Assembly: GCA_900547315.1 (NCBI GenBank)
Contig: URGI01000001.1
Span: forward strand, 12,639-76,638
Direction of reading: 5' to 3'
Length of the DNA stretch: 64,000 nucleotides
Origin: an uncultured Eubacteriales bacterium
Lineage (GTDB): Bacteria; Bacillota; Clostridia; Oscillospirales; Oscillospiraceae
How positions within the stretch are numbered: position 1 is the stretch's first letter; each line of letters begins with the position of its first letter. The notes under the pieces are model-generated. The model searched no databases. It was not told the origin of the DNA and was given only the letters and a program-made list of their open reading frames with translations. This document shows, piece by piece, positions 25,116 through 42,105 of the stretch. Position numbers and translations under genes: made by a program.

Positions 25116-26288
25116 TTATAAATTGTCCTGCGCCGAAAATACCGACTGCGCGAGCAACGCCGCGCCGCATACCGGCGTGTCATGCGCGGCATGGAACATC
25201 GGGTTGTGCCATAGGTAGGGCTTCTCTCCGGGGACGCCGGAGCCGAGAAAATAGAAGAAGGAGGGGACGCCCTCGCTCAGCAGCGAGAAATCCTCCGACG
25301 CCATGTTCACGGAGGGAACCTTTACGTTTTCCACCCCGAATACCGCGGCGCCCGCGTCCGACGCGGCCTTCAGCAGCGACTCGCTGTTGAAAACTCCGCG
25401 CGTGATCGGTATCAGCTCAAGCTCACAGGCGCAGCCGAATTCCTCCGCGGTGCCGTGCGCCATAAGCTCAACACGCTTGAGGATGCGCTCGCGCACGTCC
25501 TCTTCAAGACTGCGGATGTTGCCGGTTATCTCGGCGTCGTCGATCGTGGTGGTGAACGGCGTACCGGACTGGATGGAGCACACGGTCAGCACGGCGGACT
25601 CAAGTGGGCCGACATTGCGGCTTATGATAGTCTCAAGCGACATGACGAGGCTGGCGATGGCCACCGTCGGGTCGACATTTTTCTGCGGCGTGCTCGTATG
25701 GCCGCTTTTGCCGATGAACTTAATGCGGAAGCCATCTTTGAACGACATGAGCGGCCCGGCCTTGACGCCGACGGTGCCGACAGGCAGCTCCGGCAGATTG
25801 TGCAGCCCGAAAACGGCGCTGGGCTTGTACTGCGAAAAGACGTTGTGCTCAAGCATGTACTTTGCGCCCTTGAGCTTTTCCTCCGCCGGCTGGAACACAA
25901 AGAGCACGTTCGCGCGAAGCTCGTCCCGGTGCGCGCTCAGCAGCATCGCCGCGCCGAGCAGCCCCGCCGTATGGGTGTCGTGCCCGCAGCCGTGCATGAC
26001 TCCGGGCGTGAGGGATTTGTCCGGCCGGTCATATTCCTCGTGCTGCACGATAGCGTCGATGTCCGCGCGCAGCGCGATGGTCGCGTCCCCGCGGCCGCGG
26101 AGCAGCCCCACGACGCCGGTCTCAAGACCAAGGTCAAGTATCTCAATGCCGAGCTTCTCAAGCTGGGCGCGGATGATGGCGCTGGTGCGCTTTTCCTCAA
26201 AGCTCAGCTCAGGATGGGCGTGAAGGTCGGCAGTAATCGAATAAATCTGTTCGGAATAGTGTTTTTTTGCCTCTTCAAGAAGGTTCAA
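25116..26288 (-). CDS. M20/M20D family amidohydrolase (aminoacylase/hippurate-hydrolase-like; a possible N-carbamoyl or N-acyl amino acid amidohydrolase)
   Basis: 390-aa protein with the M20D metal-binding motifs (MHGCGHDTH, ...FQPAEE...). TTG start at 26288 after an AAAGGAG RBS. Divergent from the LacI-family regulator gene. Confidence 0.8.
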   Translation of the reverse strand: MNLLEEAKKHYSEQIYSITADLHAHPELSFEEKRTSAIIRAQLEKLGIEILDLGLETGVVGLLRGRGDATIALRADIDAIVQHEEYDRPDKSLTPGVMHGCGHDTHTAGLLGAAMLLSAHRDELRANVLFVFQPAEEKLKGAKYMLEHNVFSQYKPSAVFGLHNLPELPVGTVGVKAGPLMSFKDGFRIKFIGKSGHTSTPQKNVDPTVAIASLVMSLETIISRNVGPLESAVLTVCSIQSGTPFTTTIDDAEITGNIRSLEEDVRERILKRVELMAHGTAEEFGCACELELIPITRGVFNSESLLKAASDAGAAVFGVENVKVPSVNMASEDFSLLSEGVPSFFYFLGSGVPGEKPYLWHNPMFHAAHDTPVCGAALLAQSVFSAQDNL

Positions 26289-26463: not shown

Positions 26464-26478
26464 AGTTAAACGATTATC
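26464..26478 (+). promoter_or_regulatory. Candidate LacI-family operator, copy 1 (AGTTAAACGATTATC), about 40 nt upstream of the regulator gene
   Basis: One of three copies of a near-palindromic 14-16-mer centred on CG. Exact string read from the sequence. Confidence 0.4.
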
Positions 26479-26514: not shown

Positions 26515-27570
26515 ATGAATGGTAGAAAAGTAAGCTATGCGACAATAAAAGATGTTGCAGAGCTGGCCGAAACGTCTGTGGCGACCGTATCGTATATTCT
26601 CAGCGGAAAGTCCGAAAAGAGCTTCCGACAGGATACGGTGGACAGAGTTATGGCGGCTGTCGAGGAGCTGAATTACAGCAAGAACGCAATCGCCTCCGGA
26701 CTGCGCGGCAATAAGCGCGGCATGATCTACATCATTATCCCTCAGTTTTCAAACATATACTACACGCGAGTGTGCGAAGCGATAGAAAATGTTCTGTTTG
26801 AAAACGGACTTGTCCCCGTGATATGCGACACGAGAGAAGACCCGGAGCGTGAAAAGCGCCTGCTTGAGCTTGCGATAAGCCAGCGCTGCGACGGGATAGT
26901 GCTTGGGCCTACGATCAGAGGCTGGGAGAATACGGCGGCGGTCAGAAGCCTGAATATCCCGCTTGTCGTGGTCGGGCGCGAGCTTGGCTCGCCCAATGAC
27001 CAGAAGTCCTACTATTATGTAGGGGACGACAGCTATCAGGCCGGCTACCTTGCCGGAAGCGTCCTCGCAAAGGGCGGACATGAATCCATCGGAGTTATCG
27101 ACTGGGGAAGCCAGATCGGCTCGGCAATTGACCGAAGCAACGGCTTCACGGCGGCGATAAAAAAGCATTGCCCCGGTGTGAAGCTCATGCATGCGTCAAG
27201 CATGATCGTTGATGTAGATACCGGATACCAGCTTACGAAGAGCATATTTGGCGATAAAATGCCCAATGCACTCTTTTACAGCTACCATGTACTGGCGCAG
27301 GGAGGCATAACCTACCTTCACGAGCATGGCCTGCGCATCCCTGAGGATGTGACGATCTCGATGGTCGGCACACCGTCGTGGGCGAAGCTGCTGGAATCGC
27401 CGTGCACGATGGTAAATCAAAATGAAGATTGGGTTGGATCAACGGCGGCGAAGATAATGCTCCGTCTTATAGACGGAGATACGTCGAGCCTGCTCATGTC
27501 GGAATACCGGCATGTGTGCCGCTGCCAGCTCGTTGAACACAGCGGCTTCAGAAAAGCCGCGTCAAATTAG
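26515..27570 (+). CDS. LacI-family transcriptional regulator (HTH plus periplasmic-binding-protein-like sugar/ligand domain)
   Basis: N-terminal HTH ATIKDVAELAETSVATVSYIL and a C-terminal PBP-like domain. Confidence 0.85.
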   Translation: MNGRKVSYATIKDVAELAETSVATVSYILSGKSEKSFRQDTVDRVMAAVEELNYSKNAIASGLRGNKRGMIYIIIPQFSNIYYTRVCEAIENVLFENGLVPVICDTREDPEREKRLLELAISQRCDGIVLGPTIRGWENTAAVRSLNIPLVVVGRELGSPNDQKSYYYVGDDSYQAGYLAGSVLAKGGHESIGVIDWGSQIGSAIDRSNGFTAAIKKHCPGVKLMHASSMIVDVDTGYQLTKSIFGDKMPNALFYSYHVLAQGGITYLHEHGLRIPEDVTISMVGTPSWAKLLESPCTMVNQNEDWVGSTAAKIMLRLIDGDTSSLLMSEYRHVCRCQLVEHSGFRKAASN

Positions 27571-27755: not shown

Positions 27756-27771
27756 AGTTAAACGATTAACT
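27756..27771 (+). promoter_or_regulatory. Candidate LacI-family operator, copy 3 (AGTTAAACGATTAACT), about 100 nt upstream of the carbamate kinase start
   Basis: 7 of 8 palindromic pairs around the central CG. Identical core to copy 2. Confidence 0.4.
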
Positions 27772-27873
27772 ATTTTTCACTCATTTCACCTTTTGTTTAA
27801 CCTGCACAGAAAAGTCAGCAAATTCAATTTATATATATCATGTTTGCTCAAAAAATGGAAGGACGGTAAGATT

Positions 27874-28812
27874 ATGAAAAAAGTTGTTATTGCTCTCGGT
27901 GGAAACGCTCTTCAGGCAAGAGGCGAGGCCGCGACCAGCGAAAACCAGCTTAAGAACGTCATGGTGACCGCAGAGCACATCGCCAAGATAATCGGCGAGG
28001 GCTACAAGGTCATCGTCAGCCACGGCAACGGCCCCCAGGTCGGCAGAATCCTGCTCCAGAACGAGGCCGGCAAGAGCGTGACTCCTCCGATGCCGATGGA
28101 TGTCTGCGGCGCAATGACTCAGGGCATGATCGGATATCACATCCAGCAGGGTCTCTCTCAGGTTCTCCGCGAGAACGGCATTGACAAGCCCGTCTGCACC
28201 CTCGTGACTCAGGTCGAGGTCGACAGCGCTGACCCCGCATTCCAGAATCCCACCAAGCCTGTCGGCGCTTTCTACACCGAGGAAGAGGCCATGCAGATAC
28301 AGGCCGAGAAGGGCTACGCGATGAAGAAGGACGCGAACCGCGGCTACCGCAGAGTCGTTCCCTCCCCCAAGCCCCAGAAGATCATCGAGATCGACACCAT
28401 AAAGACCCTCGTCGACGGCGATACCGTTGTTGTCGCAGCAGGCGGCGGCGGAATCCCCGTGTGCAAGAAGGACGGCAAGTACGTCGGTATCGAGGCTGTT
28501 ATAGACAAGGACTTCGCCTCCGAGGTTCTCGCAGAGCAGCTTGACGCGGACATCCTGATGATCCTCACTGAGGTCGAGAACGTCTGCCTCAACTTCGGCA
28601 AGCCCGACGAGAAGGTTCTGCGTGAAGTCACTGCAGATGAGATGGACAAGTACGCGGCAGAAGGCCACTTCGCTCCCGGCAGCATGCTCCCGAAGGTTCA
28701 GGCCGTCAGCAAGTTCGTACACTCCAAGCCCGGCAGAGTCGCAGTCATCACCTCTCTGGAGAACGCCGTCAACGGCATCACCGGTGTAAAGGGAACCATC
28801 ATCAAAGGCTAA
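27874..28812 (+). CDS. arcC: Carbamate kinase
   Basis: Start at MKKVVIALGGNAL (ATG at 27874, GGAAGGACGG RBS). Amino-acid-kinase fold motifs throughout (e.g. VVVAAGGGGIPV). 312 aa. Confidence 0.85.
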   Translation: MKKVVIALGGNALQARGEAATSENQLKNVMVTAEHIAKIIGEGYKVIVSHGNGPQVGRILLQNEAGKSVTPPMPMDVCGAMTQGMIGYHIQQGLSQVLRENGIDKPVCTLVTQVEVDSADPAFQNPTKPVGAFYTEEEAMQIQAEKGYAMKKDANRGYRRVVPSPKPQKIIEIDTIKTLVDGDTVVVAAGGGGIPVCKKDGKYVGIEAVIDKDFASEVLAEQLDADILMILTEVENVCLNFGKPDEKVLREVTADEMDKYAAEGHFAPGSMLPKVQAVSKFVHSKPGRVAVITSLENAVNGITGVKGTIIKG

Positions 28813-28846
28813 GCGTCATTCATTATATTAATTAGGAGTTATAAAA

Positions 28847-30004
28847 ATGCGTGAAGTTATTCCTGTAAAATGCTCCATCGTCCGCGGCGGCACCAGCAAG
28901 GGCATCTTCATTATGGAAAATGAACTGCCCCGTGATCCCGAACTGCGCGACAAGTATATTCTTGAGATATTCGGCAGCCCCGATGTCCGTCAGATAGACG
29001 GTCTCGGCGGTGCGGACGTCCTCACCAGCAAGCTTGCGATAATCGGCCCGTCCAGCAGAGAAGATGCGGACGTCGATTATACCTTCGGTCAGGTCAGCTT
29101 CGTCGAGCCAAAGATCGACTACAAGTCCAACTGCGGCAACATCTCCGCCGGCGTTGCACCCTTTGCGATAAACAACGGCATTGTCAAGGCTGTTGAGCCC
29201 TACACCACCGTCCGCATCCATCAGGTCAACACCGACACCATCATCAACGCCAAGGTCGAGGTTCGTGACGGCAAGGCCGCTGTTGACGGCGACTTCCATA
29301 TCGACGGTGTTCCCACTCCCGGCTCCACGATCGAGCTTGACTTCTCCGACAGCGTCGGCGGCATCACCGGCAAGCTCCTTCCGACCGATAACGTTGTTGA
29401 CACCATCGTGACCGACGACGGCAAGAGCTACGAGGTCTCCGTGGTCGACGCGGGCATCCCAACCGTGTTCATTGAGGCCAAGTCCCTCGACATGAGCGGC
29501 ATCGAGACTCCCCAGCAGATCGAGGGCAACGCGGCGCTTATGACCAAGATCGAAGAGATCCGCGGCCGCTGCGCGGTAAAGATGGGCTTCACCGACGATT
29601 ACAAGAACGCCGTTAAGGATTGCCCCTACGCTCCGTTCTTCGCCATCGTCTCTCCGAGCCAGAGCTACCACACCTTCGACGGCAAGGACGTCAAGGGTGA
29701 GGACATCGACATCGTCAGCCGCCTCGTCTTCATGCAGAAGATGCATAAGACCCACCCCGTGACCGGCACCGTGTGCATGTCCACCGCGGCCCGCATCCCC
29801 GGCAGCATCGTCAACCGCAATCTCTCCGAGCGCGGCAAGGCCGAGCACCGTATATGGATCGGCCACCCGGCAGGCGTTATCCCGGCGGTCTCCGTCCTCG
29901 ACAACGTTGACGGCGAGTACAAGCTCCGCACCGCTGCCATTCTCCGCACCGCACGCGTCATCATGGACGGCACCGTATACGTGCGCCGCTCCAGAGTAGA
30001 GTAA
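28847..30004 (+). CDS. PrpF/AcnD-accessory family isomerase (2-methylaconitate or 3-methylitaconate isomerase-like)
   Basis: 385-aa protein with N-terminal IPVKCSIVRGGTSKGIFI, the hallmark of the PrpF/Mii family. Confidence 0.8.
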   Translation: MREVIPVKCSIVRGGTSKGIFIMENELPRDPELRDKYILEIFGSPDVRQIDGLGGADVLTSKLAIIGPSSREDADVDYTFGQVSFVEPKIDYKSNCGNISAGVAPFAINNGIVKAVEPYTTVRIHQVNTDTIINAKVEVRDGKAAVDGDFHIDGVPTPGSTIELDFSDSVGGITGKLLPTDNVVDTIVTDDGKSYEVSVVDAGIPTVFIEAKSLDMSGIETPQQIEGNAALMTKIEEIRGRCAVKMGFTDDYKNAVKDCPYAPFFAIVSPSQSYHTFDGKDVKGEDIDIVSRLVFMQKMHKTHPVTGTVCMSTAARIPGSIVNRNLSERGKAEHRIWIGHPAGVIPAVSVLDNVDGEYKLRTAAILRTARVIMDGTVYVRRSRVE

Positions 30005-30059
30005 GGGCGTTCAGCCAAAAGCTTTCAAATAAAAAAACAAAAAATTTCAGGAGGAAACC

Positions 30060-31448
30060 ATGAGCAAGTATTTAGCAGAGCAGATTTCTGAAGTAGTTGT
30101 CAACACCCATTTTGAGGATCTGCCCCAGTATGCAGTTGACAAAGCAAAGATGCTGACCCTCGACGTTCTGGCCTCTATGGTCGGTACCCGCAAGGTCATC
30201 TCCAGCGAAATCGCCCGCGATGTAGCGGCAGAGCTCGGCGGCCCGGAAGAGGCTTCCATCGTCGGCTACGGCAAGAAGGTTGCAGCACCCAACGCTGCAT
30301 TCGCAAATGCTATCCAGTGCTATGGTCTTGACTTCGTTGATGACCATAATGAATCCAACGCTCACCCCTCTCCCGTTACCTACCCCGTCAGCTTCGCACT
30401 CGCCGAGCAGCTCAAGCGCTCCGGTAAGGAATTCATCGAAGCCTGCGTTCTCGGTAACGAGATCGTCTGCCGTATGGGCAGCGCCTACCTCGGCGACATG
30501 TACACCCAGGGCTTCCATCCCACCAGCACCTGCGGCACCATGGGCGGTGTTGTCTCCGCTGCAAAGCTGATGAAGCTCGACGAGCAGAAGGTCTCCTACG
30601 CTCAGGGCATCGCCGGCTCCGCCGTTGCGGGTCTGATGGCATGGAACACCCAGGGCTCCTTCACCAAGCGTTACCAGGCCGGCCGTCCCTCCATGGACGT
30701 CATCGTTGCCGCACGCATGGCCGAGAAGGGCTTCAACGGACCTACCGACATCTTCGAGAGCCAGGACGGTCTGCTCCACGCATACTCCTACCAAGATCGC
30801 TACGACACCAACTGGATCACCAAGGATCTGGGCAAAGAGTGGATATTCGCCACCTCCAGCATCAAGGTTTACCCCTGCTGCCGTTACTCCGGCGGTCACC
30901 TCGACGCCTGCCTTGAGATCGTCCACAAGTATCATCCCGATCCCGCCAAGATCGCAAAGATCCACGTTCGCTCCTCCCTCCAGACCATGCACCTGCTGGC
31001 CGAGCCGCGCAAGTGGCATCCGGAAAACATCGTTGACCTGCAGTTCTCCATGCCTTACCAGGCAGCTGTCGCGTTCCTCAACGGCAAGTTCACTCCGGAC
31101 GAGCTGAATGTCGAGTACATCAAGAATCCGCTCATCCAGAAGATGATCGCCAACACCACCGTCGTCTGCGACGATGAGTTCGAGCGCCGTTATCCTGAGC
31201 ACTACTCCAGCGCTGTTACCATCACCATGGAAGACGGCACCGAGTACACCGCAGTTGTCGACGATCCTAAGGGCGACTGGAGAAATCCCGTTACCTACGA
31301 AGATGTCGAGAACAAGTTCCGTTACCTCGCCAATACCGTTTACGCTGATCCCGAGCGCACCGAGAAGATCATTGCTTTCGTCAAGGATCTTGAGAAGCAG
31401 CCCGACATGAGCGTTCTCATGGAGCTTGTAAACGACGAGGCCAAATAA
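30060..31448 (+). CDS. MmgE/PrpD family protein (2-methylcitrate dehydratase / cis-aconitate decarboxylase superfamily)
   Basis: 462-aa protein with the MmgE/PrpD architecture (N-terminal helical domain, conserved C-terminal region). Confidence 0.85.
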   Translation: MSKYLAEQISEVVVNTHFEDLPQYAVDKAKMLTLDVLASMVGTRKVISSEIARDVAAELGGPEEASIVGYGKKVAAPNAAFANAIQCYGLDFVDDHNESNAHPSPVTYPVSFALAEQLKRSGKEFIEACVLGNEIVCRMGSAYLGDMYTQGFHPTSTCGTMGGVVSAAKLMKLDEQKVSYAQGIAGSAVAGLMAWNTQGSFTKRYQAGRPSMDVIVAARMAEKGFNGPTDIFESQDGLLHAYSYQDRYDTNWITKDLGKEWIFATSSIKVYPCCRYSGGHLDACLEIVHKYHPDPAKIAKIHVRSSLQTMHLLAEPRKWHPENIVDLQFSMPYQAAVAFLNGKFTPDELNVEYIKNPLIQKMIANTTVVCDDEFERRYPEHYSSAVTITMEDGTEYTAVVDDPKGDWRNPVTYEDVENKFRYLANTVYADPERTEKIIAFVKDLEKQPDMSVLMELVNDEAK

Positions 31449-31479
31449 TTAAGCTTCGCAAGTGAGAGGAGATAAACAT

Positions 31480-32055
31480 ATGGGCGAAAGAAATGCCGAC
31501 TCTCGCGGGAAGAAGATAGTTTTCGTATCCAACTGCCTGCTCAACGCCAACAACAAGGTTCAGGAGTTTGCACGCTACCCCGGAATGTTTTTCGAGATAC
31601 TCACCACGCTCAACAGGTATGGCATCGGCGTCGAGCAGATGCCATGCCCGGAGACGCTGTACGCCGGAAACCAGCGCTGGTGGCACTCCCGCAATCTTTA
31701 CGATAATGCGGGCTTCAGAAGATTCTGCCGCGAGCTTGCCGAGCGGACGGTCGACTACATCGAGAACTACGGCATAGTAGGCTATCAGGTGGTCGGTATT
31801 CTGGTCTGCGACGGGTCCCCGACCTGCGGCTACTCCATCTCCAGCTATTACGAAAACGGCGGCGGTCATCCTGCCGAGCCGGTACGCAGCTTTAAAGAGC
31901 GCCCCGGCATATATACGGAGGAATTGCTCAAGGCGGTCGAGGCGCGGGGCGTGAAGCTCCCGCCGATATACGGCCTGCCGGTGGACGACAGAGATCGCAC
32001 CAACGAGCAGATAATCGCCGATTTTGACAGTTTCATTAATTCCAATCTCACCTAA
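31480..32055 (+). CDS. DUF523 family protein (TudS-like: three conserved Cys, [4Fe-4S]-dependent 2-thiouracil desulfidase family)
   Basis: IVFVSNCLL..., MPCPET and GSPTCGY match the three Cys-containing motifs of DUF523/TudS. Start at the ATG at 31480 with a GAGAGGAG RBS. Confidence 0.6.
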   Translation: MGERNADSRGKKIVFVSNCLLNANNKVQEFARYPGMFFEILTTLNRYGIGVEQMPCPETLYAGNQRWWHSRNLYDNAGFRRFCRELAERTVDYIENYGIVGYQVVGILVCDGSPTCGYSISSYYENGGGHPAEPVRSFKERPGIYTEELLKAVEARGVKLPPIYGLPVDDRDRTNEQIIADFDSFINSNLT

Positions 32056-32170
32056 TTTATATCGCGCTCGCTCCGGCTCCCCCCTTGCCGGAGTGAGCGC
32101 ACCTCCCCCTGCTTCTGGCTCATAGTGAGCATAGATTTATTTAGAAAAACAGAGAAGGGTTGTATTTACT

Positions 32171-33433
32171 ATGGGAATGACATTTGCACAGAAAGCTCTG
32201 GCAAGAGCCGCAGGCAAAGATTATGTTGATATAGGCGAAATCGTCATGGCGAACGTCGACGTGGCCATGATGGACGATATACTCGGCCCCAGAATCGAGA
32301 TCGCAGCCGGTTTGAAAGAACTGGGCGTTGACGTCTGGGACAAGTCCAAGGTCGTTGTCATAAGCGACCACTACACTCCTCCCTGCGAGATAAAGCAGGC
32401 TGAGGCCGTCCGCTTCACGCGCGACTGGTCCGAGGAGCACGAGGTGTCCTACTACGAGTACGCAGGACCGTGTCATCAGGTTCTGGCCGAGCGCTGCTAT
32501 GACCAGCCCGGCACCCTCGTCGTCGGCACCGACTCCCACACCTGCATGGCAGGCGCTTTCGGCGCGTTCGGCACCGGCATCGGCTCTACCGAGATGCTCG
32601 GCGTCGTCGCCACCGGCCAGATCTGGCTCAAGGTTCCCGAAAGCTTCCGCATTGAATGGAAAAACAAGCTCCCCGCGGGCGTATTTGCCAAGGACATGGT
32701 TCTCTATGACTGCGGCAAGATCGGCCACTCCGGAGCCACATATAAAGCACTTGAGTACTGCGGCGATATGATAAGCGCCCTGTCAATGGACGAGCGCATG
32801 GCCATCTCCAACATGGCCGTTGAGATGGGCGCGAAGGCCGGCTACATCCCGGCCGACGAAAAGACCCTCGAATACATCAAGGCGCACGGCGAGCTCAAGA
32901 ACTACGCGATGCTCTATCCCGACGCGGACGCCGTCTACGAGCGCAACTACGTGAACGACGCGGCGGCGCTTGTACCGCAGGTCGCCTGCCCGCACCACGT
33001 CGACAATGTCCACCCCGTCACCGAGGTGGAGGGCACCAAGCTCACCCAGGTCTACATCGGCTCCTGCACCGGCGGCAGAATTTCCGACCTGCGCACCGCA
33101 GCAAAGGTGCTCAAGGACAGGAAAGCGGCTCCCGGAATGCGCTTCCTCGTCTCCCCGGCCTCCAGAGAGGTCTACAAGATGGCGCTTAACGAAGGCATAC
33201 TCGATATCCTCACCGACGCCGGCGCGGTCATCGTCGCCCCGTCCTGCGGACTCTGCCTCGGCGCGCACACCGGCATACTCGCAGCCGGCGAGAGCTGCAT
33301 CTCCACCAGCAACCGCAACTTTATCGGACGTATGGGCAGCAAGAATGCGAACGTCTACCTCGGCTCTGCGGCAACCGTCGCAGCTTCCGCGATAGAGGGA
33401 CGTATAGCCGATCCAAGAAAGTATTTTGAATAA
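32171..33433 (+). CDS. Aconitase-family hydro-lyase large subunit, short LeuC-type (3-isopropylmalate / citramalate / dimethylmaleate dehydratase-like)
   Basis: 420-aa short-form LeuC with Fe-S ligand motifs GSCTGGR and APSCGLCLG. It is sited in a catabolic operon, not with leuAB. Confidence 0.8.
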   Translation: MGMTFAQKALARAAGKDYVDIGEIVMANVDVAMMDDILGPRIEIAAGLKELGVDVWDKSKVVVISDHYTPPCEIKQAEAVRFTRDWSEEHEVSYYEYAGPCHQVLAERCYDQPGTLVVGTDSHTCMAGAFGAFGTGIGSTEMLGVVATGQIWLKVPESFRIEWKNKLPAGVFAKDMVLYDCGKIGHSGATYKALEYCGDMISALSMDERMAISNMAVEMGAKAGYIPADEKTLEYIKAHGELKNYAMLYPDADAVYERNYVNDAAALVPQVACPHHVDNVHPVTEVEGTKLTQVYIGSCTGGRISDLRTAAKVLKDRKAAPGMRFLVSPASREVYKMALNEGILDILTDAGAVIVAPSCGLCLGAHTGILAAGESCISTSNRNFIGRMGSKNANVYLGSAATVAASAIEGRIADPRKYFE

Positions 33434-33451
33434 TCGGGAGGGAGAATAAAA

Positions 33452-33946
33452 ATGGATTCTGTAATCACCGGAAAGGTATGGAAATTCGGAGATGACATCA
33501 ATACCGACATAATATCTCCCGCCGAATACATGGACGCCAGCTACGGGGTTATCGGTAAGCACGCGATGGAGCGCGCGTTCCCCGGCTTCGCGGATGCTAT
33601 TGCACGGGGTGATATAATCGTTGCAGGTAAAAACTTCGGCTCCGGCTCCAGCCGCGAGACAGCGCAGATCGCTCTCATTTACGCGGGCGTCGGCGCGGTC
33701 ATTGCGAAGGACTTCGCCCGTATCTTCTTCAGAAACTGCATTAACGTCGGCCTGCCCGTTGTCAACTTTGCGGACACCGACAAGCTCAATCAGGGCGATG
33801 AGATACGCGTCAACTTCCTCTCCGGCGTGATCGAGGATCTCACCACCGGCGAGACCTATCACGGCAGCCGTCTGCCTGAAAACGTGCTTGCAATCGTGCA
33901 GGACGGCGGACTGAAGGAGCACCTGAAGAAAAGCCTCAAAAAATAA
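33452..33946 (+). CDS. Aconitase-family hydro-lyase small subunit, short LeuD-type
   Basis: 164-aa protein with N-terminal KFGDDINTDIISP and a GSSRE region typical of the LeuD swivel domain. Confidence 0.8.
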   Translation: MDSVITGKVWKFGDDINTDIISPAEYMDASYGVIGKHAMERAFPGFADAIARGDIIVAGKNFGSGSSRETAQIALIYAGVGAVIAKDFARIFFRNCINVGLPVVNFADTDKLNQGDEIRVNFLSGVIEDLTTGETYHGSRLPENVLAIVQDGGLKEHLKKSLKK

Positions 33947-33982
33947 GTAAAAACTTATATATATTTTCACGGAGGTAAAACA

Positions 33983-35173
33983 ATGGCAACACTGAAGACA
34001 ACCTTTGCCGGAGTTTCCATGCCGAACCCGTTCATGCTCGCATCCGCGCCTCCCACGACCAACTGTGAGATGGTAGCCCGCAGCTTTGACGCCGGCTGGG
34101 GCGGCGCCGTGCTCAAGACCATGGCATATGATCTGAGAATGGCACGCAATGTAAACCCGCGCATAGCGGCCTATAAGGTTGGCAAGTCCATCCACGGCTT
34201 TACTAACTTCGAGCTCGGCAGCCCGAAGCCCATCTCCAAGTGGCTTGAGGACGCGCGCTGGCTGAAGGAACGCTTCCCCGAACACGCCGTGTTCGTCAGC
34301 CTTCTGCACACGGAAGGTCTCGTCGAGGAACAGTGGCGCGAAGTGACCAGAATGTTCAACGATGCCGGTATCGACGGCTTCGAGCTGAACTTCTCATGCT
34401 CCCACGGTATGGCGGAAGCGGGCGGCGGCGCTCAGGTCGGCGGCAACGAGGAGGCTATAAAGATGGTCACCAACTGGGTCAGATCCGAAACCAATCTCCC
34501 GGTTATGCCAAAGCTTCCCGCAATGGTTCCCAACATCGGCAGCAAGGCTCGCGCGGCTGAGGAAGCCGGCGCAGACGCCATAGCAACGATAAACACCCTC
34601 AATTCCATTCCCGGAATCGACATCTATAATTTCGTCCCGTATCCCACGGTCGACGGCAAGAGCGCATTTTCCGGCATGAGCGGCCGCGCGATAAAGCCCA
34701 TCGCTCTGCGCACCGTCGCTCAGGTCGCCAAGGCCGTCAACATCCCGGTCTCCGGTATCGGCGGCATATACACATGGCAGGATGCGGTAGAGTTCATCCT
34801 CGCGGGCGCGTCCTCTCTGCAGGTCTGTTCCGCGGTCATGGAGAACGGCTACAAGTGCGTCGAGGCGATGAACAAGGGTCTCCTTAAGTATATGGAGGAG
34901 ATGGGCTTTGAGACGATAAGCGACTTCGTCGGCAAGGCGCTGCCCAACATTACCGCGCACAACAATCTTTCTAGAACCTATAAGCTCCACGCCGAGTGCG
35001 ACGAGACCAAGTGCATCGGCTGCTCCCGCTGCGTGGCGGTCTGCAGCGACAGCGCTTACAGCGCAATCAGCATGGACGGCAAGCACGCTTCCGTTGACGC
35101 GGCGAAGTGCGACGGCTGCGGCCTGTGCACTCAGGTCTGCCCGGCCGGAGCGCTCAGCATGAAGGTCAGATAA
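33983..35173 (+). CDS. PreA-like dihydropyrimidine/dihydroorotate dehydrogenase-family flavoprotein with a C-terminal 2x[4Fe-4S] ferredoxin domain
   Basis: 396-aa protein: TIM-barrel DHOD/DHPD-like core plus C-terminal CIGCSRCVAVC...CDGCGLCTQVCP. No PreT-like partner is encoded nearby. Confidence 0.8.
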   Translation: MATLKTTFAGVSMPNPFMLASAPPTTNCEMVARSFDAGWGGAVLKTMAYDLRMARNVNPRIAAYKVGKSIHGFTNFELGSPKPISKWLEDARWLKERFPEHAVFVSLLHTEGLVEEQWREVTRMFNDAGIDGFELNFSCSHGMAEAGGGAQVGGNEEAIKMVTNWVRSETNLPVMPKLPAMVPNIGSKARAAEEAGADAIATINTLNSIPGIDIYNFVPYPTVDGKSAFSGMSGRAIKPIALRTVAQVAKAVNIPVSGIGGIYTWQDAVEFILAGASSLQVCSAVMENGYKCVEAMNKGLLKYMEEMGFETISDFVGKALPNITAHNNLSRTYKLHAECDETKCIGCSRCVAVCSDSAYSAISMDGKHASVDAAKCDGCGLCTQVCPAGALSMKVR

Positions 35174-35194: not shown

Positions 35195-36580
35195 GTGAAC
35201 GATATCAACATTATAAACGGTACGATTGTTCGCCCTGAGGGCTGCGAGAAGGCCGATATCGGCATTCGCGGCGGAAAGATAGTCTCAGTGAACAAGCCCG
35301 GCAGCCTGACCGAAGCGGCTGAAAAAACGATAGATGCAAGCGGCCTGTATGTGTTTCCGGGGATGATAGATACCCATGTGCACATCCGCGGCGGTATCCT
35401 CTCCCACCGTGAGAGCTTTGCCTCCGGCACTCAGGCTGCCGCATCCGGCGGCATCACTACGATCATGGAGATGCCGATAGCGAACCCGCCCGCCTCCACG
35501 CCGGAAGCCTTCGATGCGCGGCGCAAGGAAATAGGCGAGCAGGCATATGTCGACTTCTGCATGTACGGCGGCGCCGGAAGCGATAACCTCGACCAGATAG
35601 AGCTGCTGACGAGCCACGGCGCGGCGGCATATAAGACCTTCCTGATGCCTCCCGTGCCCGGCCGCGAGAAGGAATTTTACGGCCTTTGCAGCGAGACTAC
35701 AGAACAGCTCACGGAGGTCATGGAGCGCGTGGCCGCGGTCGGCGGCGTGCTCTGCTGCCACAGCGAGCTGAACGAATACGTTGCTCCCTATGCCGCAAAG
35801 CTTATGGCCGAAGGCCGCAACGGCGTAAAGGCATGGGGCGAGTCGAGACCGATCGAGGCTGAGACGGAAGCCGTAAAGCGCGTCATTGCCGCCGCCGAAA
35901 AGACCGGCTGCAAGGCAGTTATCTGCCATGTCAGCGCACCGGAGACGGTCGAGCTTATCCAGCAGGCGAAGAAGCGCGGCGTGGATATACACGGCGAGAC
36001 CTGCCCGCAGTACATCCTGTATAACTGCGAGAATGCGGAAGCCGCCGGTGTGTTTGCCCGCATGAAGCCGCCGCTCCGCACTCCGGAGACCATGGAGAAG
36101 CTCATGCAGTGCTACGCCGACGGGCTCCTTGAGATAACCGGCAGCGACCATGCGCCGTACACCTACGAGGAGAAGACCCGCAGCGGCGAAGATATATGGC
36201 ATTGCTTCGACGGACTTCCCGGCCTTGAGCTGAGCCTGCGCCTTCTGCTGAACGCGGCATCCGACGGCAGACTCACCTATGAGGAGATCGCCTGCAACAC
36301 GGCCGAGAACCCCGCTGCGCTGTTTGGTATCGACGGCGCGAAGGGCAGGATCGAAGCCGGACGCGACGCCGACCTTGTGCTCGTAGAGCGACTGGACAAG
36401 CCGGAGACGCTGCATAAAGAGCAGCTCGTCACGAAGAGCCGCGAGAGCGCGGTGCTCTACGACGGCACGCAGATGACCCACCGCATCAAAGAAACCCTCG
36501 TGAGAGGAATCACCGTCTTCAAAGACGGCACCATTACCGTAAGCCATGGCTTCGGCCAGCTTATTATACCAAAATCCTAA
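35195..36580 (+). CDS. Cyclic amidohydrolase of the dihydropyrimidinase/hydantoinase/allantoinase family
   Basis: 461-aa protein with the metal-ligand motif DTHVHIR, the carbamylated-Lys region AAYKTFLM and the C-terminal Asp region GSDHAP. GTG start after a GGGGAGG RBS. Confidence 0.8.
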   Translation: MNDINIINGTIVRPEGCEKADIGIRGGKIVSVNKPGSLTEAAEKTIDASGLYVFPGMIDTHVHIRGGILSHRESFASGTQAAASGGITTIMEMPIANPPASTPEAFDARRKEIGEQAYVDFCMYGGAGSDNLDQIELLTSHGAAAYKTFLMPPVPGREKEFYGLCSETTEQLTEVMERVAAVGGVLCCHSELNEYVAPYAAKLMAEGRNGVKAWGESRPIEAETEAVKRVIAAAEKTGCKAVICHVSAPETVELIQQAKKRGVDIHGETCPQYILYNCENAEAAGVFARMKPPLRTPETMEKLMQCYADGLLEITGSDHAPYTYEEKTRSGEDIWHCFDGLPGLELSLRLLLNAASDGRLTYEEIACNTAENPAALFGIDGAKGRIEAGRDADLVLVERLDKPETLHKEQLVTKSRESAVLYDGTQMTHRIKETLVRGITVFKDGTITVSHGFGQLIIPKS

Positions 36581-36603: not shown

Positions 36604-37590
36604 ATGAGAACAGACATGCGCGGAAGAGATTTTGTTACCCTTCAGGACTTCACCGGTGAAGAGATCCAGACCATTCTGGACGTAGCTTTCCAGCTGAAGC
36701 GCGAGAACGCTATCGGTCAGGCTCACGAGCTGCTCAAGAACAAGACCCTCGGTATGCTCTTTGCACAGCCCTCCACCCGTACCCGCGTCTCCTTTGAGAC
36801 TGGTATGACTCAGCTTGGCGGCCACGCTCAGTATTACAGCGAGGACTCCATGCAGCGCAAGAATAAGGAAACTTGGGCCGACACCGGTCTGGTTCTTTCC
36901 CGTTACCTCAACGCTCTGATGGTTCGTCTGTACGACCTTGAGGAGTACGGCATGGCTCGTGACATCATGAACGAGATCCGCAAGAACACCACTATCCCCG
37001 TCATCAACGGCCTCGACGACAAAGAGCATCCCTGCCAGTGCATGGGCGACCTGATGGTCATTCAGGAGAAGCTCGGCGCAGGCTGGAAGAAGAAAAAGAT
37101 CGTTATGAGCTGGGCATACTCCGACCGCGTCAAGTCCCCCGGCGTTCCTCAGGCAATGCTGACCGCATGCAGCCTGCTCGGCGCAGACATCACCCTCGCT
37201 TACCCGAAGGGATACGAACTTGACGACCAGTACATGGAGTTCGCTCAGAACGCCGCAAAGTCCTCCGGCTCCGTCATCAGCGTTACCAACGACATCTACG
37301 AAGCCTGCACCGGCGCAGACGTCATCTACGCAAAGAGCTGGGGCAGCACCCACGGTATGCCCAAGGACGAGGATAAGGAGTACCGCAAGCAGTTCGCCAA
37401 GGATTGGTGCATCTCCGACAAGCACTTCGAGCTTGCAAATCCTGTTTCCTACTACATGCATCCGCTGCCCGCAGCACGCCACGAGGAAGTCACCGACGAA
37501 GTCATCGACGGACCGCACTCCATCGTTTACGATCAGGCCGAGAACCGTCTGCACGCTCAGAAGGCAGTCCTCGCTCTGCTCATGAAGTAA
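36604..37590 (+). CDS. Carbamoyltransferase of the ATC/OTC family with divergent second-substrate motifs (substrate unknown)
   Basis: Carbamoyl-phosphate motifs STRTR and HPCQ are present. The positions equivalent to OTC SMG and HCLP read SWG and HPLP. No arcA or arcD is in the window. Confidence 0.8.
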   Translation: MRTDMRGRDFVTLQDFTGEEIQTILDVAFQLKRENAIGQAHELLKNKTLGMLFAQPSTRTRVSFETGMTQLGGHAQYYSEDSMQRKNKETWADTGLVLSRYLNALMVRLYDLEEYGMARDIMNEIRKNTTIPVINGLDDKEHPCQCMGDLMVIQEKLGAGWKKKKIVMSWAYSDRVKSPGVPQAMLTACSLLGADITLAYPKGYELDDQYMEFAQNAAKSSGSVISVTNDIYEACTGADVIYAKSWGSTHGMPKDEDKEYRKQFAKDWCISDKHFELANPVSYYMHPLPAARHEEVTDEVIDGPHSIVYDQAENRLHAQKAVLALLMK

Positions 37591-37992: not shown

Positions 37993-39483
37993 ATGGATAG
38001 TAAAATCAAAATAATGGGTTATGCGGTCCATGGCTTGTACTTCGTTGGTATGCTGGCTATCGGTTATTTTTGCAACAAGAAGTATGCAAACAATGTTGAT
38101 GGCTTCTTTGCCGGCGGCAAGAACCTTGGCCCATGGGTCTTCGCACTTACCTACGGTTCAACTTATCTCAGCTCTTCGACGTTTGTCGGCAACACCGCCA
38201 CGGCTTACTCCGGCGGTCTTGCCTACCTTTTCATGCCCCTTGCGCAGATGCTCTTACTCCCCCTCGGACTTATCTTCTTCTCCCACATCCTGCGTAAGAT
38301 GAGTCAGTCATTGGATGTTGTCACTATCCCTGCATATCTTGAAAAACGTTTCAAGAGTCCCGCTGCCGGAATGATAACCTCCCTCATTATCGTCATTTTC
38401 TTCATTCCCTATCTCGTTGGCATAGTCAAGGCATCGGCGCTTTCGCTGGGTGCTCTTCTTGGCGTTGAGTACAAAATCGGTGTTCTCGTTATCGCGTTCA
38501 TCAGTTTTGTTTATCTCATGTTCGGCGGCTATATGGCTCGCTGCTACACTGACGTGGTTCAGGGTGTGATGATGGTCGTCGGTATGATGGCGGTTGTTAT
38601 TGCCGGCTTCTTCATTGTCGGCGGACCGAGCGCCATTACCGAAGGCGTGAAGGCAGCCGATCCCGCGCTCCTTGAGACCCCCGGTCCTAAGGGCTGGAGC
38701 GCACTGTTCCTCTATTCCACTGTTTTTGCAATAGCCCCGTGGGGACTTCCCACTCTCGTTCAGACCAACTTCACCATAGGCAACAGAAAGCATGTTTACA
38801 CCGCCGCTATCGTTCTGTCCATTTGGATATCCTGTGTCCTCTTCGGCTCCATGATAATCGGCAACATGGGCCGCGCCTTCTACGGCAACGCTCTTGTTGA
38901 TAATCCTGACTCCCTGTTCCCGACGCTGGTTATTGACTGGTTCCCGAACCTCTTCGGTGCTATAATTATCGTTGCGGTCATCTGCGCGGCAATGTCTACA
39001 ATTGACGGCACGCTGATGAACTCCGGCGCCGCTGTCGGCCTTGATATATACAAGCGTTTTATCAAGAAGGACGCGAGCGACAAGAAGGTCATTACGATCT
39101 CCAACATAGCAATGGGCGTTATCACGCTTGTCGTTATAATCTGGGCGTTTGATCCTCCCGCAATGGTGCTCACCCTCACAAGCTACGCGTTCTCTCTGGT
39201 CGCTGCCGGACTTATCGTTCCCACCTATGCGGGTCTTTACTGCAAGAAGCTCACCAGCGCAGGCTGCGTGGTTGGTATTCTTGCCGGTCTTGGCTTCTGC
39301 CTGCTGTGGTACATTACCGGTACGCCGCTTGGGATCCCTCCGTTCGTTGTCGGTATGGTCGCCTCCGCGATCGCTCTCTTCGGCGTCAGCAAGTTCACCA
39401 AGCCCCTGCCTCAGGAGTTTATTGACGATCTGTTCGCAAAGCTCAAGAACAACGCATACGTTACGGAAACTGTGGAAAAGTAA
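37993..39483 (+). CDS. Sodium:solute symporter (SSS) family transporter
   Basis: About 496-aa protein with 13-14 predicted TM helices and the SSS-family pattern. ATG at 37993 after an AGGAGGA RBS. Confidence 0.8.
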   Translation: MDSKIKIMGYAVHGLYFVGMLAIGYFCNKKYANNVDGFFAGGKNLGPWVFALTYGSTYLSSSTFVGNTATAYSGGLAYLFMPLAQMLLLPLGLIFFSHILRKMSQSLDVVTIPAYLEKRFKSPAAGMITSLIIVIFFIPYLVGIVKASALSLGALLGVEYKIGVLVIAFISFVYLMFGGYMARCYTDVVQGVMMVVGMMAVVIAGFFIVGGPSAITEGVKAADPALLETPGPKGWSALFLYSTVFAIAPWGLPTLVQTNFTIGNRKHVYTAAIVLSIWISCVLFGSMIIGNMGRAFYGNALVDNPDSLFPTLVIDWFPNLFGAIIIVAVICAAMSTIDGTLMNSGAAVGLDIYKRFIKKDASDKKVITISNIAMGVITLVVIIWAFDPPAMVLTLTSYAFSLVAAGLIVPTYAGLYCKKLTSAGCVVGILAGLGFCLLWYITGTPLGIPPFVVGMVASAIALFGVSKFTKPLPQEFIDDLFAKLKNNAYVTETVEK

Positions 39484-41280: not shown

Positions 41281-42105
41281 ATGAGAAACGTAACTATCAG
41301 CGTCATCCAGCTTGAAAACAAGCTCTTTGATAAGAATGCGAACCTTCTCAAGGCCGACGGACTCATCCGTCAGGCCGCGGCAAAGGGCGCAAAAATGATA
41401 TGCCTGCCCGAACTTTTTGTCACGGGCTACAACCTCAACGCCTTCGGCGACAGGATATATGAGCTTGGCGAAGGGCTGACCGGCCCCACCATCACTCATA
41501 TGCGCGCTCTGGCAAAGGAGCTTGGCGTGTACATAATAGCGCCCATAGCCATGCAGATGCGCACGACCCGCCCGCTGGAGAACAACGCCGTCGTTATCGA
41601 CGACGAGGGCGAGGTCATCGGCACCTACAGCAAAAACCATCTCTTCGGCGACGAGCCGAAATACTTCACCGCCAACGGTGAATACCCGGTGTTTGACACC
41701 AAATACGGCAAGATCGGCATAATGATCTGCTGCGATAACAACTTCCCCGAACCCGCGCGCATCCTTGCGCTCGGCGGCGCGGAGCTGATATTCATGCCCG
41801 CGGCATGGCGCGTACAGGAAGCGGATCTGTGGAAGCTCCTCATCTCCTCGCACGCCTGCGAGAACAATGTGTTCATCGCCGCAGCCAATGTCTTCAGCCG
41901 TATGGACGATCTGTTCCTTTTCGGACACAGCAAGGTCGTCGATCCCAGAGGCAGAGTTCTGCGCGAATCCGAGACGGAGGGAGACGATGTGCTCGTTGAG
42001 ACCATCGATCTCGATTCCGTGTACGAGCATCGCGCCTGCATGCCCAGCCTCAAGGATCGCCACCCCGAAACCTACGATGCGTTCATCGAACCGGTGAACG
42101 TGTAA
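41281..42105 (+). CDS. Carbon-nitrogen hydrolase family amidase (nitrilase superfamily branch that includes N-carbamoyl-amino-acid amidohydrolases, beta-ureidopropionase and omega-amidase)
   Basis: Catalytic triad context: E in LPELF, K in YSKNHLF, C in MICCDNNFPE. Confidence 0.8.
   Translation: MRNVTISVIQLENKLFDKNANLLKADGLIRQAAAKGAKMICLPELFVTGYNLNAFGDRIYELGEGLTGPTITHMRALAKELGVYIIAPIAMQMRTTRPLENNAVVIDDEGEVIGTYSKNHLFGDEPKYFTANGEYPVFDTKYGKIGIMICCDNNFPEPARILALGGAELIFMPAAWRVQEADLWKLLISSHACENNVFIAAANVFSRMDDLFLFGHSKVVDPRGRVLRESETEGDDVLVETIDLDSVYEHRACMPSLKDRHPETYDAFIEPVNV

Follow-up and report, generated by a model that had tools for sequence, protein, structure and literature searches.

A gene cluster of a gut Oscillospiraceae-like Clostridium that probably joins a cyclic-ureide module to a branched-diacid module

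We analysed a stretch of 64,000 nucleotides from an uncultured Eubacteriales bacterium (contig URGI01000001.1, positions 12,639 to 76,638 of the forward strand; hereafter the window). Between 26.5 and 44.3 kb of the window Pfam and NCBIfam assignments gave a row of genes without breaks on the + strand, which codes for a LacI/PurR-family regulator, enzymes of families that act on ureide rings, enzymes of families that act on branched dicarboxylates, and transporters (Table 1). We regard positions 26515–44314 as probably one LacI-controlled catabolic cluster of ~18 kb in which two modules are joined. Enzyme families, active sites and synteny carry this two-module architecture, which we hold to be somewhat more probable than its opposite, and the reactions given below are predicted from them. 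Catalytic and ligand residues were read in the protein sequences and are intact throughout the set inspected. Identical copies of the proteins occur in many human-gut metagenome contigs as well as in the metagenome-assembled genome (MAG) UMGS1216 (uncultured Clostridiales), and the exact sequence of the HMG-CoA-lyase-like protein was found in 3458 blocks of the sequence index. The host is a prevalent gut Oscillospiraceae-like Clostridium (UMGS1216). The remaining window is occupied by housekeeping genes (CTP synthase, PFOR, GluRS, V-ATPase, sporulation genes), and no leu, ilv or prp genes were found in this rest of the 64 kb.

Table 1. Genes and sequence elements of the cluster and its border (positions in the window)
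Feature	Position	Strand	Main match or remark
M20-family amidohydrolase	25116..26288	-	PF01546 E = 3.5e-35; TIGR01891 303 bits, cut-off 154
Operator-like palindrome GTTAAACGATTATC	26465..26478	.	LacI-type, 5' of regulator gene
LacI/PurR-family regulator	26515..27570	+	LacI helix-turn-helix and periplasmic-binding-protein-like domains
Operator-like palindrome GTTAAACGATTAAC, two perfect copies	27621-27634, 27757-27770	.	Leader 5' of carbamate kinase gene
Carbamate kinase	27874..28812	+	TIGR00746 arcC 438 bits, cut-off 358
PrpF-family isomerase, Mii type	28847..30004	+	PF04303 E = 1e-117, 393 bits
MmgE/PrpD-family enzyme	30060..31448	+	PF03972 190 bits, E = 6e-56; PF19305 140 bits, E = 1e-40
CD3072-family TudS-related [4Fe-4S] protein	31480..32055	+	NF045597 133.5 bits, barely over the cut-off of 130
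LeuC-like large subunit, aconitase-family hydro-lyase	32171..33433	+	Aconitase family E = 5e-94
LeuD-like small subunit	33452..33946	+	TIGR02087 180 bits, cut-off 109
PreA-type dihydropyrimidine dehydrogenase subunit	33983..35173	+	FMN domain and 2x[4Fe-4S] domain
Cyclic amidohydrolase, L-hydantoinase/allantoinase clade	35195..36580	+	Nearest structure Arthrobacter L-hydantoinase 1gkr, 290 bits
Atypical OTCase-like transcarbamylase	36604..37590	+	Carbamoyl-phosphate motifs PSTRTRVSFE (STRTR) and EHPCQ (HPCQ)
Hydrophobic open reading frame, 49 aa	37789..37938	+	Directly 5' of SSS symporter; also called in L001-L005, L135, L136
SSS-family sodium:solute symporter	37993..39483	+	PF00474 E = 1.9e-56; position kept in type A relatives
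NCS1 nucleobase/hydantoin/allantoin-type permease	39608..41257	+	PF02133 E = 8.9e-67
Carbon-nitrogen hydrolase, amidase or N-carbamoyl amidase type	41281..42105	+	PF00795 E = 6.8e-55
Family III CoA-transferase	42193..43383	+	PF02515 E = 3e-127, 425 bits, full-length domain
HMG-CoA-lyase-family lyase	43403..44314	+	PRK05692 278.7 bits, cut-off 246

An initial annotation had reported PrpF-, PrpD-, LeuC- and LeuD-like genes at positions 28847–33946. All four are present there on the + strand with strong family matches; the TudS-related gene in their midst had been overlooked. The PrpF-like protein is assigned to the Mii type and not to true PrpF. Against the Eubacterium barkeri 3-methylitaconate delta-isomerase (Mii, 3g7k) it scored 420 bits with 55% identity over 378 amino acids, in comparison to ~250 bits against genuine PrpF, and it misses the PrpF equivalog TIGR02334 (290 bits, cut-off 440.55). 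Lys62 and Cys96, reportedly the catalytic pair of that enzyme, are kept in register with Mii (TSK62, NC96GN). The predicted reaction is the conversion of an itaconate-type methylene diacid to a citraconate-type methyl-maleate. None of the genes acnD, prpC and prpB was found in the 64-kb window.

The LeuC-like protein passes NF001614 (546 bits, cut-off 385) and misses the LeuC equivalog TIGR02083 (446 vs 611 bits). It shares ~60% identity with numerous isopropylmalate/(R)-2-methylmalate dehydratases of clostridia, and the Fe-S cluster ligands Cys299, Cys359 and Cys362 are all present. Among the best 120 LeuC homologues, all of them annotated as LeuC, E. barkeri DmdA was not found. The LeuD-like subunit misses its equivalog as well (TIGR02084, 163 vs 246 bits) and is 48% identical to the small subunit of the Methanocaldococcus jannaschii isopropylmalate/citramalate isomerase (3vba). 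Its specificity loop reads YMDA in the window and YME in related modules, compared to YLVY in MJ1277 and YLRT in homoaconitase, and is without the Arg that homoaconitase uses for the third carboxylate. Judged by these affinities the pair derives from isopropylmalate/citramalate isomerases, and it would add water to a citraconate-type diacid, giving a citramalate-type 2-alkylmalate.

At the distal end of the gene row the initial annotation had placed a family III CoA-transferase and an HMG-CoA-lyase-like protein, and both were confirmed with the matches listed in Table 1. The nearest models for the CoA-transferase are those of oxalate, glutarate and mesaconate CoA-transferases; each score stays below its cut-off and no substrate-specific equivalog is reached. 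We expect a dicarboxylate substrate, namely a citramalate-type acid that would be converted to its CoA ester. The nearest solved structure of the lyase is Bacillus subtilis HMG-CoA lyase (1ydo, 230 bits); overall its best matches are HMG-CoA lyases of bacteria and humans, and the catalytic residues Arg16-Asp17, His207, His209 and Cys240 are present. Its likely reaction is the cleavage of a citramalyl-CoA-type ester to acetyl-CoA and pyruvate, a specificity suggested solely by synteny with the CoA-transferase, LeuCD and Mii-like genes.

To follow this synteny the PrpF-like protein was used as query against a genome collection. This gave 38 loci (cited by their L numbers), each of which was searched by tblastn with all cluster proteins. 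The whole cluster is present in close relatives (Oscillospiraceae, Ruthenibacterium, Allofournierella). In addition, the genes for the CoA-transferase, the lyase, the PrpF-like isomerase, LeuC and LeuD form a compact five-gene module in at least nine unrelated genomes at 40–59% identity (L014, L017–L020, L022, L024, L026, L027); in the scan with the PrpF-like protein these loci stand at 52–61% identity. The hosts belong to the Firmicutes and Fusobacteria: Leptotrichiaceae, Lachnospiraceae, Eubacteriaceae, Clostridium and a Ruminococcus MAG. These modules adjoin PrpR-type sigma-54 activators, and one locus carries two MatC/CitMHS dicarboxylate carriers. In L050, L053 and L054 CoA-transferase and lyase are replaced by a lyase of the ICL/PEP-mutase family, whose nearest matches are petal death protein and 2,3-dimethylmalate lyase, with PrpB more distant. 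As evidence from gene context, the conserved synteny speaks strongly for a joint action of the five gene products on a dicarboxylate. The connection drawn in the initial annotation between the PrpF-like and LeuCD genes and the distal CoA-transferase and lyase is thus well supported, both by the five-gene module and by the lyase swap in the three relatives. Together with the Mii-like isomerase and the affinity of LeuCD, these data make the sequence itaconate to citraconate to citramalate to (CoA ester) to pyruvate the most economical reading. As a separate observation, the modules in L014, L017 and L026 are accompanied by an aldehyde-dehydrogenase-like gene, a 4HBT thioesterase, an Fe-alcohol dehydrogenase or the MatC/CitMHS pair.

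The same proteins could be taken for housekeeping enzymes, LeuCD as biosynthetic isopropylmalate isomerase and the lyase as HMG-CoA lyase of leucine degradation; after all, LeuC is ~60% identical to annotated biosynthetic LeuC and the lyase scores above the cut-off of the HMG-CoA lyase subfamily model. However, no leuA, leuB, ilv or leucine-catabolic genes lie in the 64-kb window, the equivalog cut-offs of both LeuC and LeuD are missed, and synteny with Mii-like, CoA-transferase and ureide genes is kept across phyla. We therefore consider a housekeeping function extremely improbable.

Among the known systems the end of the E. barkeri nicotinate fermentation (Mii, DmdAB, Dml) is closest to the diacid module: the same three enzyme families occur in the same logical order. 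DmdAB and the window pair are both LeuCD-type two-subunit hydratases, likened by family, and Dml has its counterpart in the Dml/petal-death-protein-type lyases of L050, L053 and L054, which therefore show a Mii-DmdAB-Dml ending. As in E. barkeri, an N-heterocycle would be reduced and hydrolysed upstream. The window cluster, however, is without the nicotinate dehydrogenase, enamidase, 2-hydroxymethylglutarate enzymes and B12 mutase of the E. barkeri route and instead has a pyrimidine/hydantoin-type ring module with carbamoyltransferase and carbamate kinase. Unlike in E. barkeri, the hydroxy acid would be cleaved as a CoA ester by an enzyme of the HMG-CoA-lyase type, and the substrate probably has one carbon less (C5). 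A C6 chemistry of the nicotinate type, running from 3-methylitaconate over dimethylmaleate and dimethylmalate to propionyl-CoA (or propionate) and pyruvate, would leave the two-module architecture as it is. The nearest characterised isomerase is indeed a 3-methylitaconate isomerase, the lyase of L050, L053 and L054 is near 2,3-dimethylmalate lyase, and maleate-type LeuCD homologues accept dimethylmaleate. Nevertheless no locus contains a B12-dependent 2-methyleneglutarate mutase or any other nicotinate-pathway gene, and LeuC is ~60% identical to isopropylmalate/citramalate enzymes. Moreover the ureide ring would need a 1-carboxyethyl side chain, and we know of no natural source for such a ring. 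This C6 variant is consequently an improbable one.

Two further pathways share the proposed end of the C5 route. The 3-hydroxypropionate bi-cycle of Chloroflexus reportedly uses a succinyl-CoA:(R)-citramalate CoA-transferase and an (R)-citramalyl-CoA lyase. Its (R)-citramalate branch likewise pairs a family III CoA-transferase with an HMG-CoA-lyase-family lyase on a C5 hydroxy-diacid, a likeness at the family level. The window cluster differs from it in being catabolic and belonging to a fermenting Clostridium, and here the pair would be fed by an isomerase and a hydratase, not by mesaconyl-CoA chemistry. The canonical itaconate pathway (Ict, Ich, Ccl) would have the same end products, pyruvate and acetyl-CoA via citramalyl-CoA. 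That the window route is a different one, as the initial annotation had argued, holds: the cluster contains neither an Ich-type gene (MaoC-type itaconyl-CoA hydratase) nor a gene for a CitE-type (S)-citramalyl-CoA lyase. Water would be added to the free acid once it has been isomerised to citraconate, and the (R)-series is likely, not the (S)-series.

The second module consists of enzymes that would act on a ureide ring. Carbamate kinase, which forms ATP, CO2 and NH3 from carbamoyl phosphate and ADP, is also called as a 312-aa gene in L001–L006. The PreA-type protein passes the PreA equivalog NF006183 (448 bits, cut-off 335) and contains the active-site loop NFSCSHG and the INT motif; it is predicted to reduce the C5=C6 bond of the ring. 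For the cyclic amidohydrolase the next-nearest structures after L-hydantoinase are allantoinases. It reaches no equivalog cut-off (TIGR02033, dihydropyrimidinase: 261 vs 393 bits), the metal ligands His61, His63, Lys147, His189, His245 and Asp318 are present, and it would open the ring hydrolytically to an N-carbamoyl amino acid. In the carbamoyltransferase HPLP takes the place of HCLP and KSWGS that of DxxxSMG, and two clade-specific insertions are common to the orthologues. The protein barely exceeds TIGR00658 (281.6 vs 280.85 bits) and is without the ornithine-binding motifs; it is therefore not an ornithine enzyme. Its probable reaction is phosphorolysis of the N-carbamoyl intermediate to carbamoyl phosphate and an amine. 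Orthologues adjoin PrpD-like genes in L048–L051 and L054.

Reduction, ring hydrolysis and decarbamoylation follow one another in the same order in reductive pyrimidine catabolism (PreTA/PydA, PydB, PydC), and in relatives of the window cluster PreT and a decarbamoylase of the M20/M28 type are found as well. In the window, by contrast, a carbamoyltransferase coupled to carbamate kinase replaces the hydrolytic beta-ureidopropionase, the amidohydrolase belongs to the L-hydantoinase/allantoinase clade, and the PrpD-like protein and the branched-diacid module are added, which are needless for the products of uracil and thymine. The energy logic (phosphorolysis of the ureido group, ATP by carbamate kinase) is shared with two other ureide systems. 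In the reductive uric acid pathway of E. coli the carbamoyltransferase YgeW and the carbamate kinase YqeA turn the ureido group into ATP anaerobically (PMC12507026), and in allantoin fermentation carbamoyl phosphate is harvested by cleavage of oxalurate (PMC11326118). The window transcarbamylase, however, belongs to another clade than YgeW (115–124 bits with the YgeW models vs cut-offs of 453–500) and the ring differs. These pathways end in a C3 product (diaminopropionate or oxamate), whereas that of the window would end in a branched C5 diacid. We also considered that paralogues of aspartate transcarbamylase, dihydroorotase and dihydroorotate dehydrogenase synthesise a substituted pyrimidine. 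Such a biosynthetic direction is unlikely because of the carbamate kinase, the transporters, the LacI and sigma-54 catabolic regulators, the desulfidase and the amidase.

The TudS-related protein itself has no Pfam match; its homologues carry PF27735 or PF04463. A PDB search with the sequence yielded nothing useful. For the AlphaFold model (pLDDT 82.6) the best fold match in the PDB is TudS (6z92), a weak one (E = 0.01, TM 0.45/0.56). Cys25, Cys62-Pro-Glu and Ser119-Pro-x-Cys122-Gly are invariant. From family and model we consider the protein a putative thio-base desulfidase that would convert a thio-substrate to its oxo form. A homologue with 56% identity stands alone in another common gut bacterium, as expected of a general base-salvage enzyme. 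Separately, we noticed in L139 (391–8824) microvirus-like genes (Phage_F major capsid, Chlamydia-phage-type scaffold, replication protein) beside an integrase and a stand-alone TudS-like gene.

The MmgE/PrpD-family protein shares its fold and two-domain architecture with the members of known function (2-methylcitrate dehydratase, cis-aconitate decarboxylase (CAD), iminodisuccinate (IDS) epimerase), but its genomic partners are entirely different and it has clade motifs of its own, DDHNESN and KVYPCCRYSGGH. It stays far below the PrpD equivalogs NF042438 (46.7 vs 950 bits) and NF006943 (33.5 vs 575). The nearest solved structures are IDS epimerase and CAD (~110–154 bits), and the scores against CAD chains (92–144 bits) do not exceed the match to IDS epimerase. 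His102, His153, Lys203 and Lys269 are invariant in the family and align with His103, His159, Lys207 and Lys272 of CAD. By these comparisons the protein is not a PrpD orthologue and belongs to a distinct clade that is widespread in anaerobes, where homologues at 60–75% identity are frequent. The initial annotation had counted it as a member of the itaconate cascade. This part did not hold up: the gene lies outside the conserved five-gene module, the PrpD equivalog score is as low as given above, and the gene co-occurs with PreA, cyclic amidohydrolase and decarbamoylase. From this gene context we propose for it a deaminating beta-elimination, in which a ring-derived amino-diacid would give an unsaturated diacid. 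To our knowledge the substrates known for the MmgE/PrpD family all have a succinyl skeleton.

Since PrpD, PrpF, LeuCD and, in relatives, a PrpB-like lyase are found, a variant of the 2-methylcitrate cycle that oxidises propionyl-CoA from thymine-type substrates has to be weighed at this point. All four protein families of that cycle do occur across the wider locus set. No locus, however, has a gene for citrate or methylcitrate synthase, and both equivalogs are clearly missed (PrpD 47 vs 950 bits, PrpF 290 vs 440). The isomerase is Mii-like, and for the ICL-family lyase PrpB is a more distant match than dimethylmalate lyase and petal death protein. The LeuD loop with Asp/Glu and no Arg fits a tricarboxylate poorly, and each cluster has one C-C lyase only. 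A methylcitrate-cycle variant is very unlikely on these grounds.

We then scanned metagenomes with the PrpD-like protein, which yielded 80 loci; all loci were classified by tblastn and de-replicated at 90% identity. The PrpD-like gene is the constant one across these loci because it served as search anchor. After de-replication 35 loci of at least 9 kb remained. PreA and a decarbamoylase were found in 21 of them, LeuC and the PrpF-like gene in 14, both modules in 10 and neither module in another 10, the latter all at ≤61% identity. PreA accompanies the PrpD-like gene in 18 of the 19 loci with at least 63% identity to the window protein. This co-occurrence with the ureide module indicates that the diacid is probably not free itaconate taken up from outside and is more likely made in the cell from an N-heterocycle. 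The cascade from itaconate over citraconate to citramalate in the initial annotation is supported by comparative genomics, while its ureide-ring setting (carbamate kinase, PreA, hydantoinase, carbamoyltransferase) had been missed.

The loci fall into several arrangements. Arrangement A is that of the window. The minimal arrangement B (Dendrosporobacter) comprises a uridine-phosphorylase-family gene, Crp, the PrpD-like gene, an ABC transporter, a TudS-like gene, PreA, an amidohydrolase and an M20/M28 hydrolase. Arrangement C combines a xanthine-dehydrogenase-like gene, an aminotransferase, an isochorismatase, a carbon-nitrogen hydrolase, PreA, the PrpD-like gene and the carbamoyltransferase with LeuCD, the PrpF-like gene, a succinyl-CoA-synthetase-like ligase and the HMG-CoA-lyase-like gene. 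Arrangement D has the PrpD-like gene, LeuCD, the PrpF-like gene, the ligase, the HMG-CoA-lyase-like gene, the CoA-transferase, a non-Pyl MtmB homologue and a corrinoid protein and is without ureide genes. A deltaproteobacterial form contains PreT, an enoyl-CoA hydratase, an ADP-forming acyl-CoA synthetase and TctABC. Relatives also have a gene of the uridine-phosphorylase family, ABC binding proteins of the Bmp or NMT1 type, or TctABC. Separately, in L064 and L065 (12069–13688; 82% identity of the PrpD-like protein) the cluster is interrupted within LeuC and lacks the pathway genes further downstream; the break is a 539-aa chimeric open reading frame with the start of LeuC followed by unrelated sequence.

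The modules are joined in distinct gene orders: that of the window, that of L051/L104/L110/L134, that of L053 and that of L054. In the window itself they interleave, in the order carbamate kinase, PrpF, PrpD, TudS-like, LeuCD, PreA. From the varied arrangements we conclude that ring and diacid modules were joined repeatedly, with interchangeable CoA-activating and C-C-cleaving enzymes. Conceivably one operon holds two independent pathways, reductive uracil, thymine or orotate degradation with ATP from carbamoyl phosphate beside a module for free gut itaconate or citraconate. Such independence would agree with the occurrence of the five-gene module alone with dicarboxylate carriers, with that of the upper module alone in Dendrosporobacter and others, with a possible terminator 3' of the carbamoyltransferase gene and with an SSS transporter that could carry a carboxylate. 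On the other hand the window genes are interleaved as described, at least four joined arrangements in distant lineages differ in their CoA-activating enzymes and lyases, and the PrpD-like gene is the only conserved gene of the window able to dispose of the amine of the upper module. We regard two unconnected pathways as quite improbable.

For a single route through both modules the following steps are proposed. A nucleobase-like (carboxyalkyl-substituted) cyclic ureide would enter by the NCS1 and SSS transporters. If the substrate is thiolated, the TudS-related Fe-S enzyme would remove the sulfur. The ring would be reduced by the PreA-type reductase and opened by the L-hydantoinase/allantoinase-like amidohydrolase, the N-carbamoyl product would be cleaved phosphorolytically by the atypical carbamoyltransferase, and carbamate kinase would convert the resulting carbamoyl phosphate to ATP. 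C2 and N3 would thus be lost as carbamoyl phosphate and C4-C5-C6 would remain with their substituents and with N1 as amine. As the Mii-like isomerase, LeuCD and a 2-alkylmalate-type cleavage are needed, this remainder would have to be a branched C5 (or C6) diacid. The PrpD-like enzyme may form the bridge between the modules by removing the remaining nitrogen through beta-elimination, giving an itaconate-type methylene diacid. On a 2-substituted succinate this step would be the amine analogue of 2-methylcitrate dehydration. Removal of N1 is assigned to this enzyme because it is the sole conserved candidate in the window. The Mii-like isomerase would then form the citraconate-type diacid and LeuCD the citramalate-type 2-alkylmalate, which would be activated by the family III CoA-transferase and split by the HMG-CoA-lyase-type enzyme to acetyl-CoA and pyruvate.

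The substituents of the ring would decide which amine is formed. With a 5-carboxymethyl substituent 2-(aminomethyl)succinate would arise and give itaconate on elimination; a 5-methyl-6-carboxy pattern would lead to 3-methylaspartate and mesaconate. The PreA score, the NCS1 permease, the TudS-like and carbon-nitrogen hydrolase genes and, in relatives, the phosphorylase and the Bmp/NMT1 proteins fit a 5-substituted, sometimes thiolated or amidated uracil. We tentatively name 5-carboxymethyluracil or its 2-thio or amide forms, derived from eukaryotic tRNA wobble bases (cm5/ncm5/mcm5(s2)U), as a candidate substrate, aware that this particular choice is more likely wrong than right. Still less certain, and in our view rather doubtful, is a complete fermentation route of gut and sediment anaerobes dedicated to xm5U/xm5s2U, in which nucleoside phosphorylase, amidase and TudS-like protein would free the base, ATP would be gained from the carbamoyl group of the ring, the PrpD-like protein would act as C-N lyase, a new kind of MmgE/PrpD enzyme, and itaconate formed in the cell would drain into a Mii-LeuCD-CoA-transferase-lyase sink without relation to Ict-Ich-Ccl.

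The second substitution pattern was examined as an alternative with the same architecture: the amine would be 3-methylaspartate, derived from a 5-methylorotate-like pyrimidine or a 5-(1-carboxyethylidene)hydantoin, the PrpD-like protein would act as a methylaspartase analogue producing mesaconate, and the PrpF-like protein would supply citraconate to LeuCD. In agreement with this the amidohydrolase is nearer to L-hydantoinase, allantoinase and dihydroorotase than to dihydropyrimidinase, the HPLP motif of the carbamoyltransferase is aspartate-transcarbamylase-like, and aspartate derivatives are the substrates of IDS epimerase, to which the PrpD-like protein is nearest among solved structures. 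The reductase, however, passes PreA (448 vs 335 bits) and fails the dihydroorotate dehydrogenase equivalog (188 vs 269), a Mii-type shift of a methylene double bond would be needless if mesaconate forms, and the usual mesaconate hydratase (class I fumarase) is absent. We know of no natural source for the required ring. Like the C6 variant, a route through 3-methylaspartate has a low probability.

Other substrates were considered and rejected. In a purine the longest contiguous carbon chain is three, from which a branched C5 diacid cannot be obtained. Uracil and thymine give monocarboxylate products that LeuCD cannot use. Orotate leads to aspartate and fumarate, for which Mii, LeuCD and the lyase are not needed. 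For hydantoin-5-propionate, derived from histidine or ergothioneine, neither ergothionase nor glutamate mutase is present. Trigonelline and nicotinate contain no ureido group, and a B12 mutase is lacking.

Several points weigh against the proposed ureide pathway. The whole case is built on homology and gene context, and 5-carboxymethyluracil is a rare compound for an operon so large and widespread; we found no literature report of its catabolism. Epimerase or decarboxylase activity, as in its nearest solved relatives, is conceivable for the PrpD-like protein in place of C-N lyase activity. No PreT gene is present in the window or, between PreA and the amidohydrolase (35173–35195), in the nearest relatives, so that PreA must draw on another electron donor; in most relatives a PreT-like gene sits at this position (L070, L076, L090 and others). 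In L116, L126, L129 and L130 an MtmB homologue accompanies the PrpD-like gene and the lower module while ureide genes are absent, a pairing that the model leaves unexplained. This homologue (also in L050, 12556–14714) is of full length beside a corrinoid protein and has no in-frame stop, and is therefore non-pyrrolysine. Such clusters suggest another precursor of the same amine or intermediate, perhaps an N-methylated one. In minimal clusters such as that of Dendrosporobacter (L045) the upper module is accompanied by the PrpD-like gene, and no lower module lies nearby. More distant PrpD-like genes (56–59%; L103, L107, L109, L121) lie beside gamma-glutamyltranspeptidase, DUF1847, class V aminotransferase and FAD-linked oxidase genes, a context that hints at thiol or glutathione adducts, not ureides. 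Just 3' of the carbamoyltransferase gene, at 37658–37712, two hairpins succeed each other, the first GC-rich (CGGGGCAGG...CCTGCCCCG) and the second with a short T-run, and this element may be a terminator or attenuator that splits the enzyme genes from the transporter, CoA-transferase and lyase genes. Finally the operator-like palindromes are confined to the head of the cluster; none was found before the transporter or the CoA-transferase genes. All five alternative explanations were nevertheless rated below the ureide pathway.

Regulation and transport were analysed from the same gene row. The regulator gene heads the cluster in relatives too. A LacI-type operator-like palindrome GTTAAACGATTA(A/T)C occurs at three sites in the 64 kb with at most two mismatches, compared to 0.1 expected by chance, and similar sites lie 5' of the carbamate kinase gene in L009, L063 and L064. 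A scan of 24–46 kb with Rfam, carried out as a clue to the ligand, gave no significant riboswitch match. The region 26001–28000, which comprises the regulator and the long leader before the carbamate kinase gene, has a GC content of 0.49 in comparison to ~0.58–0.60 in the flanks. Divergent from the regulator lies the M20-family gene, which may code for an N-acyl or N-carbamoyl amino-acid hydrolase of uncertain pathway role; its position is kept in the Oscillospiraceae relatives L009, L012, L063 and L076. The 49-aa open reading frame probably codes for a small accessory subunit of the SSS symporter. The best NCBIfam matches of the NCS1 permease (allantoin permease, 249 bits) and of the carbon-nitrogen hydrolase (N-carbamoylputrescine amidase, 163 bits) are both under their cut-offs. 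The hydrolase contains the Glu44, Lys118 and Cys motifs and accompanies the cluster in L011, L012, L052 and L070.

We found no description of the cluster or of the proposed pathway in the literature, although work in subscription journals might exist. The enzyme families are all known; what appears new is how they are combined, together with the PrpD-like and transcarbamylase clades and the late CoA activation on the route of a branched C5 diacid. If the proposal is true, the cluster would represent a new anaerobic catabolic pathway with known enzyme families in a new order. It would provide a first physiological role for a widespread MmgE/PrpD clade, a new transcarbamylase clade and the CD3072 TudS-related family, and strict anaerobes would possess a second, CoA-late route for itaconate, citraconate and citramalate. 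Should the tRNA-base reading be true as well, bacteria would both supply and consume itaconate in the gut through this cluster, and the modified bases would have a first catabolic fate. As human gut metagenomes commonly contain the organism, the substrate and the products, which possibly include itaconate-type immunometabolites, could matter for host-microbe chemistry.

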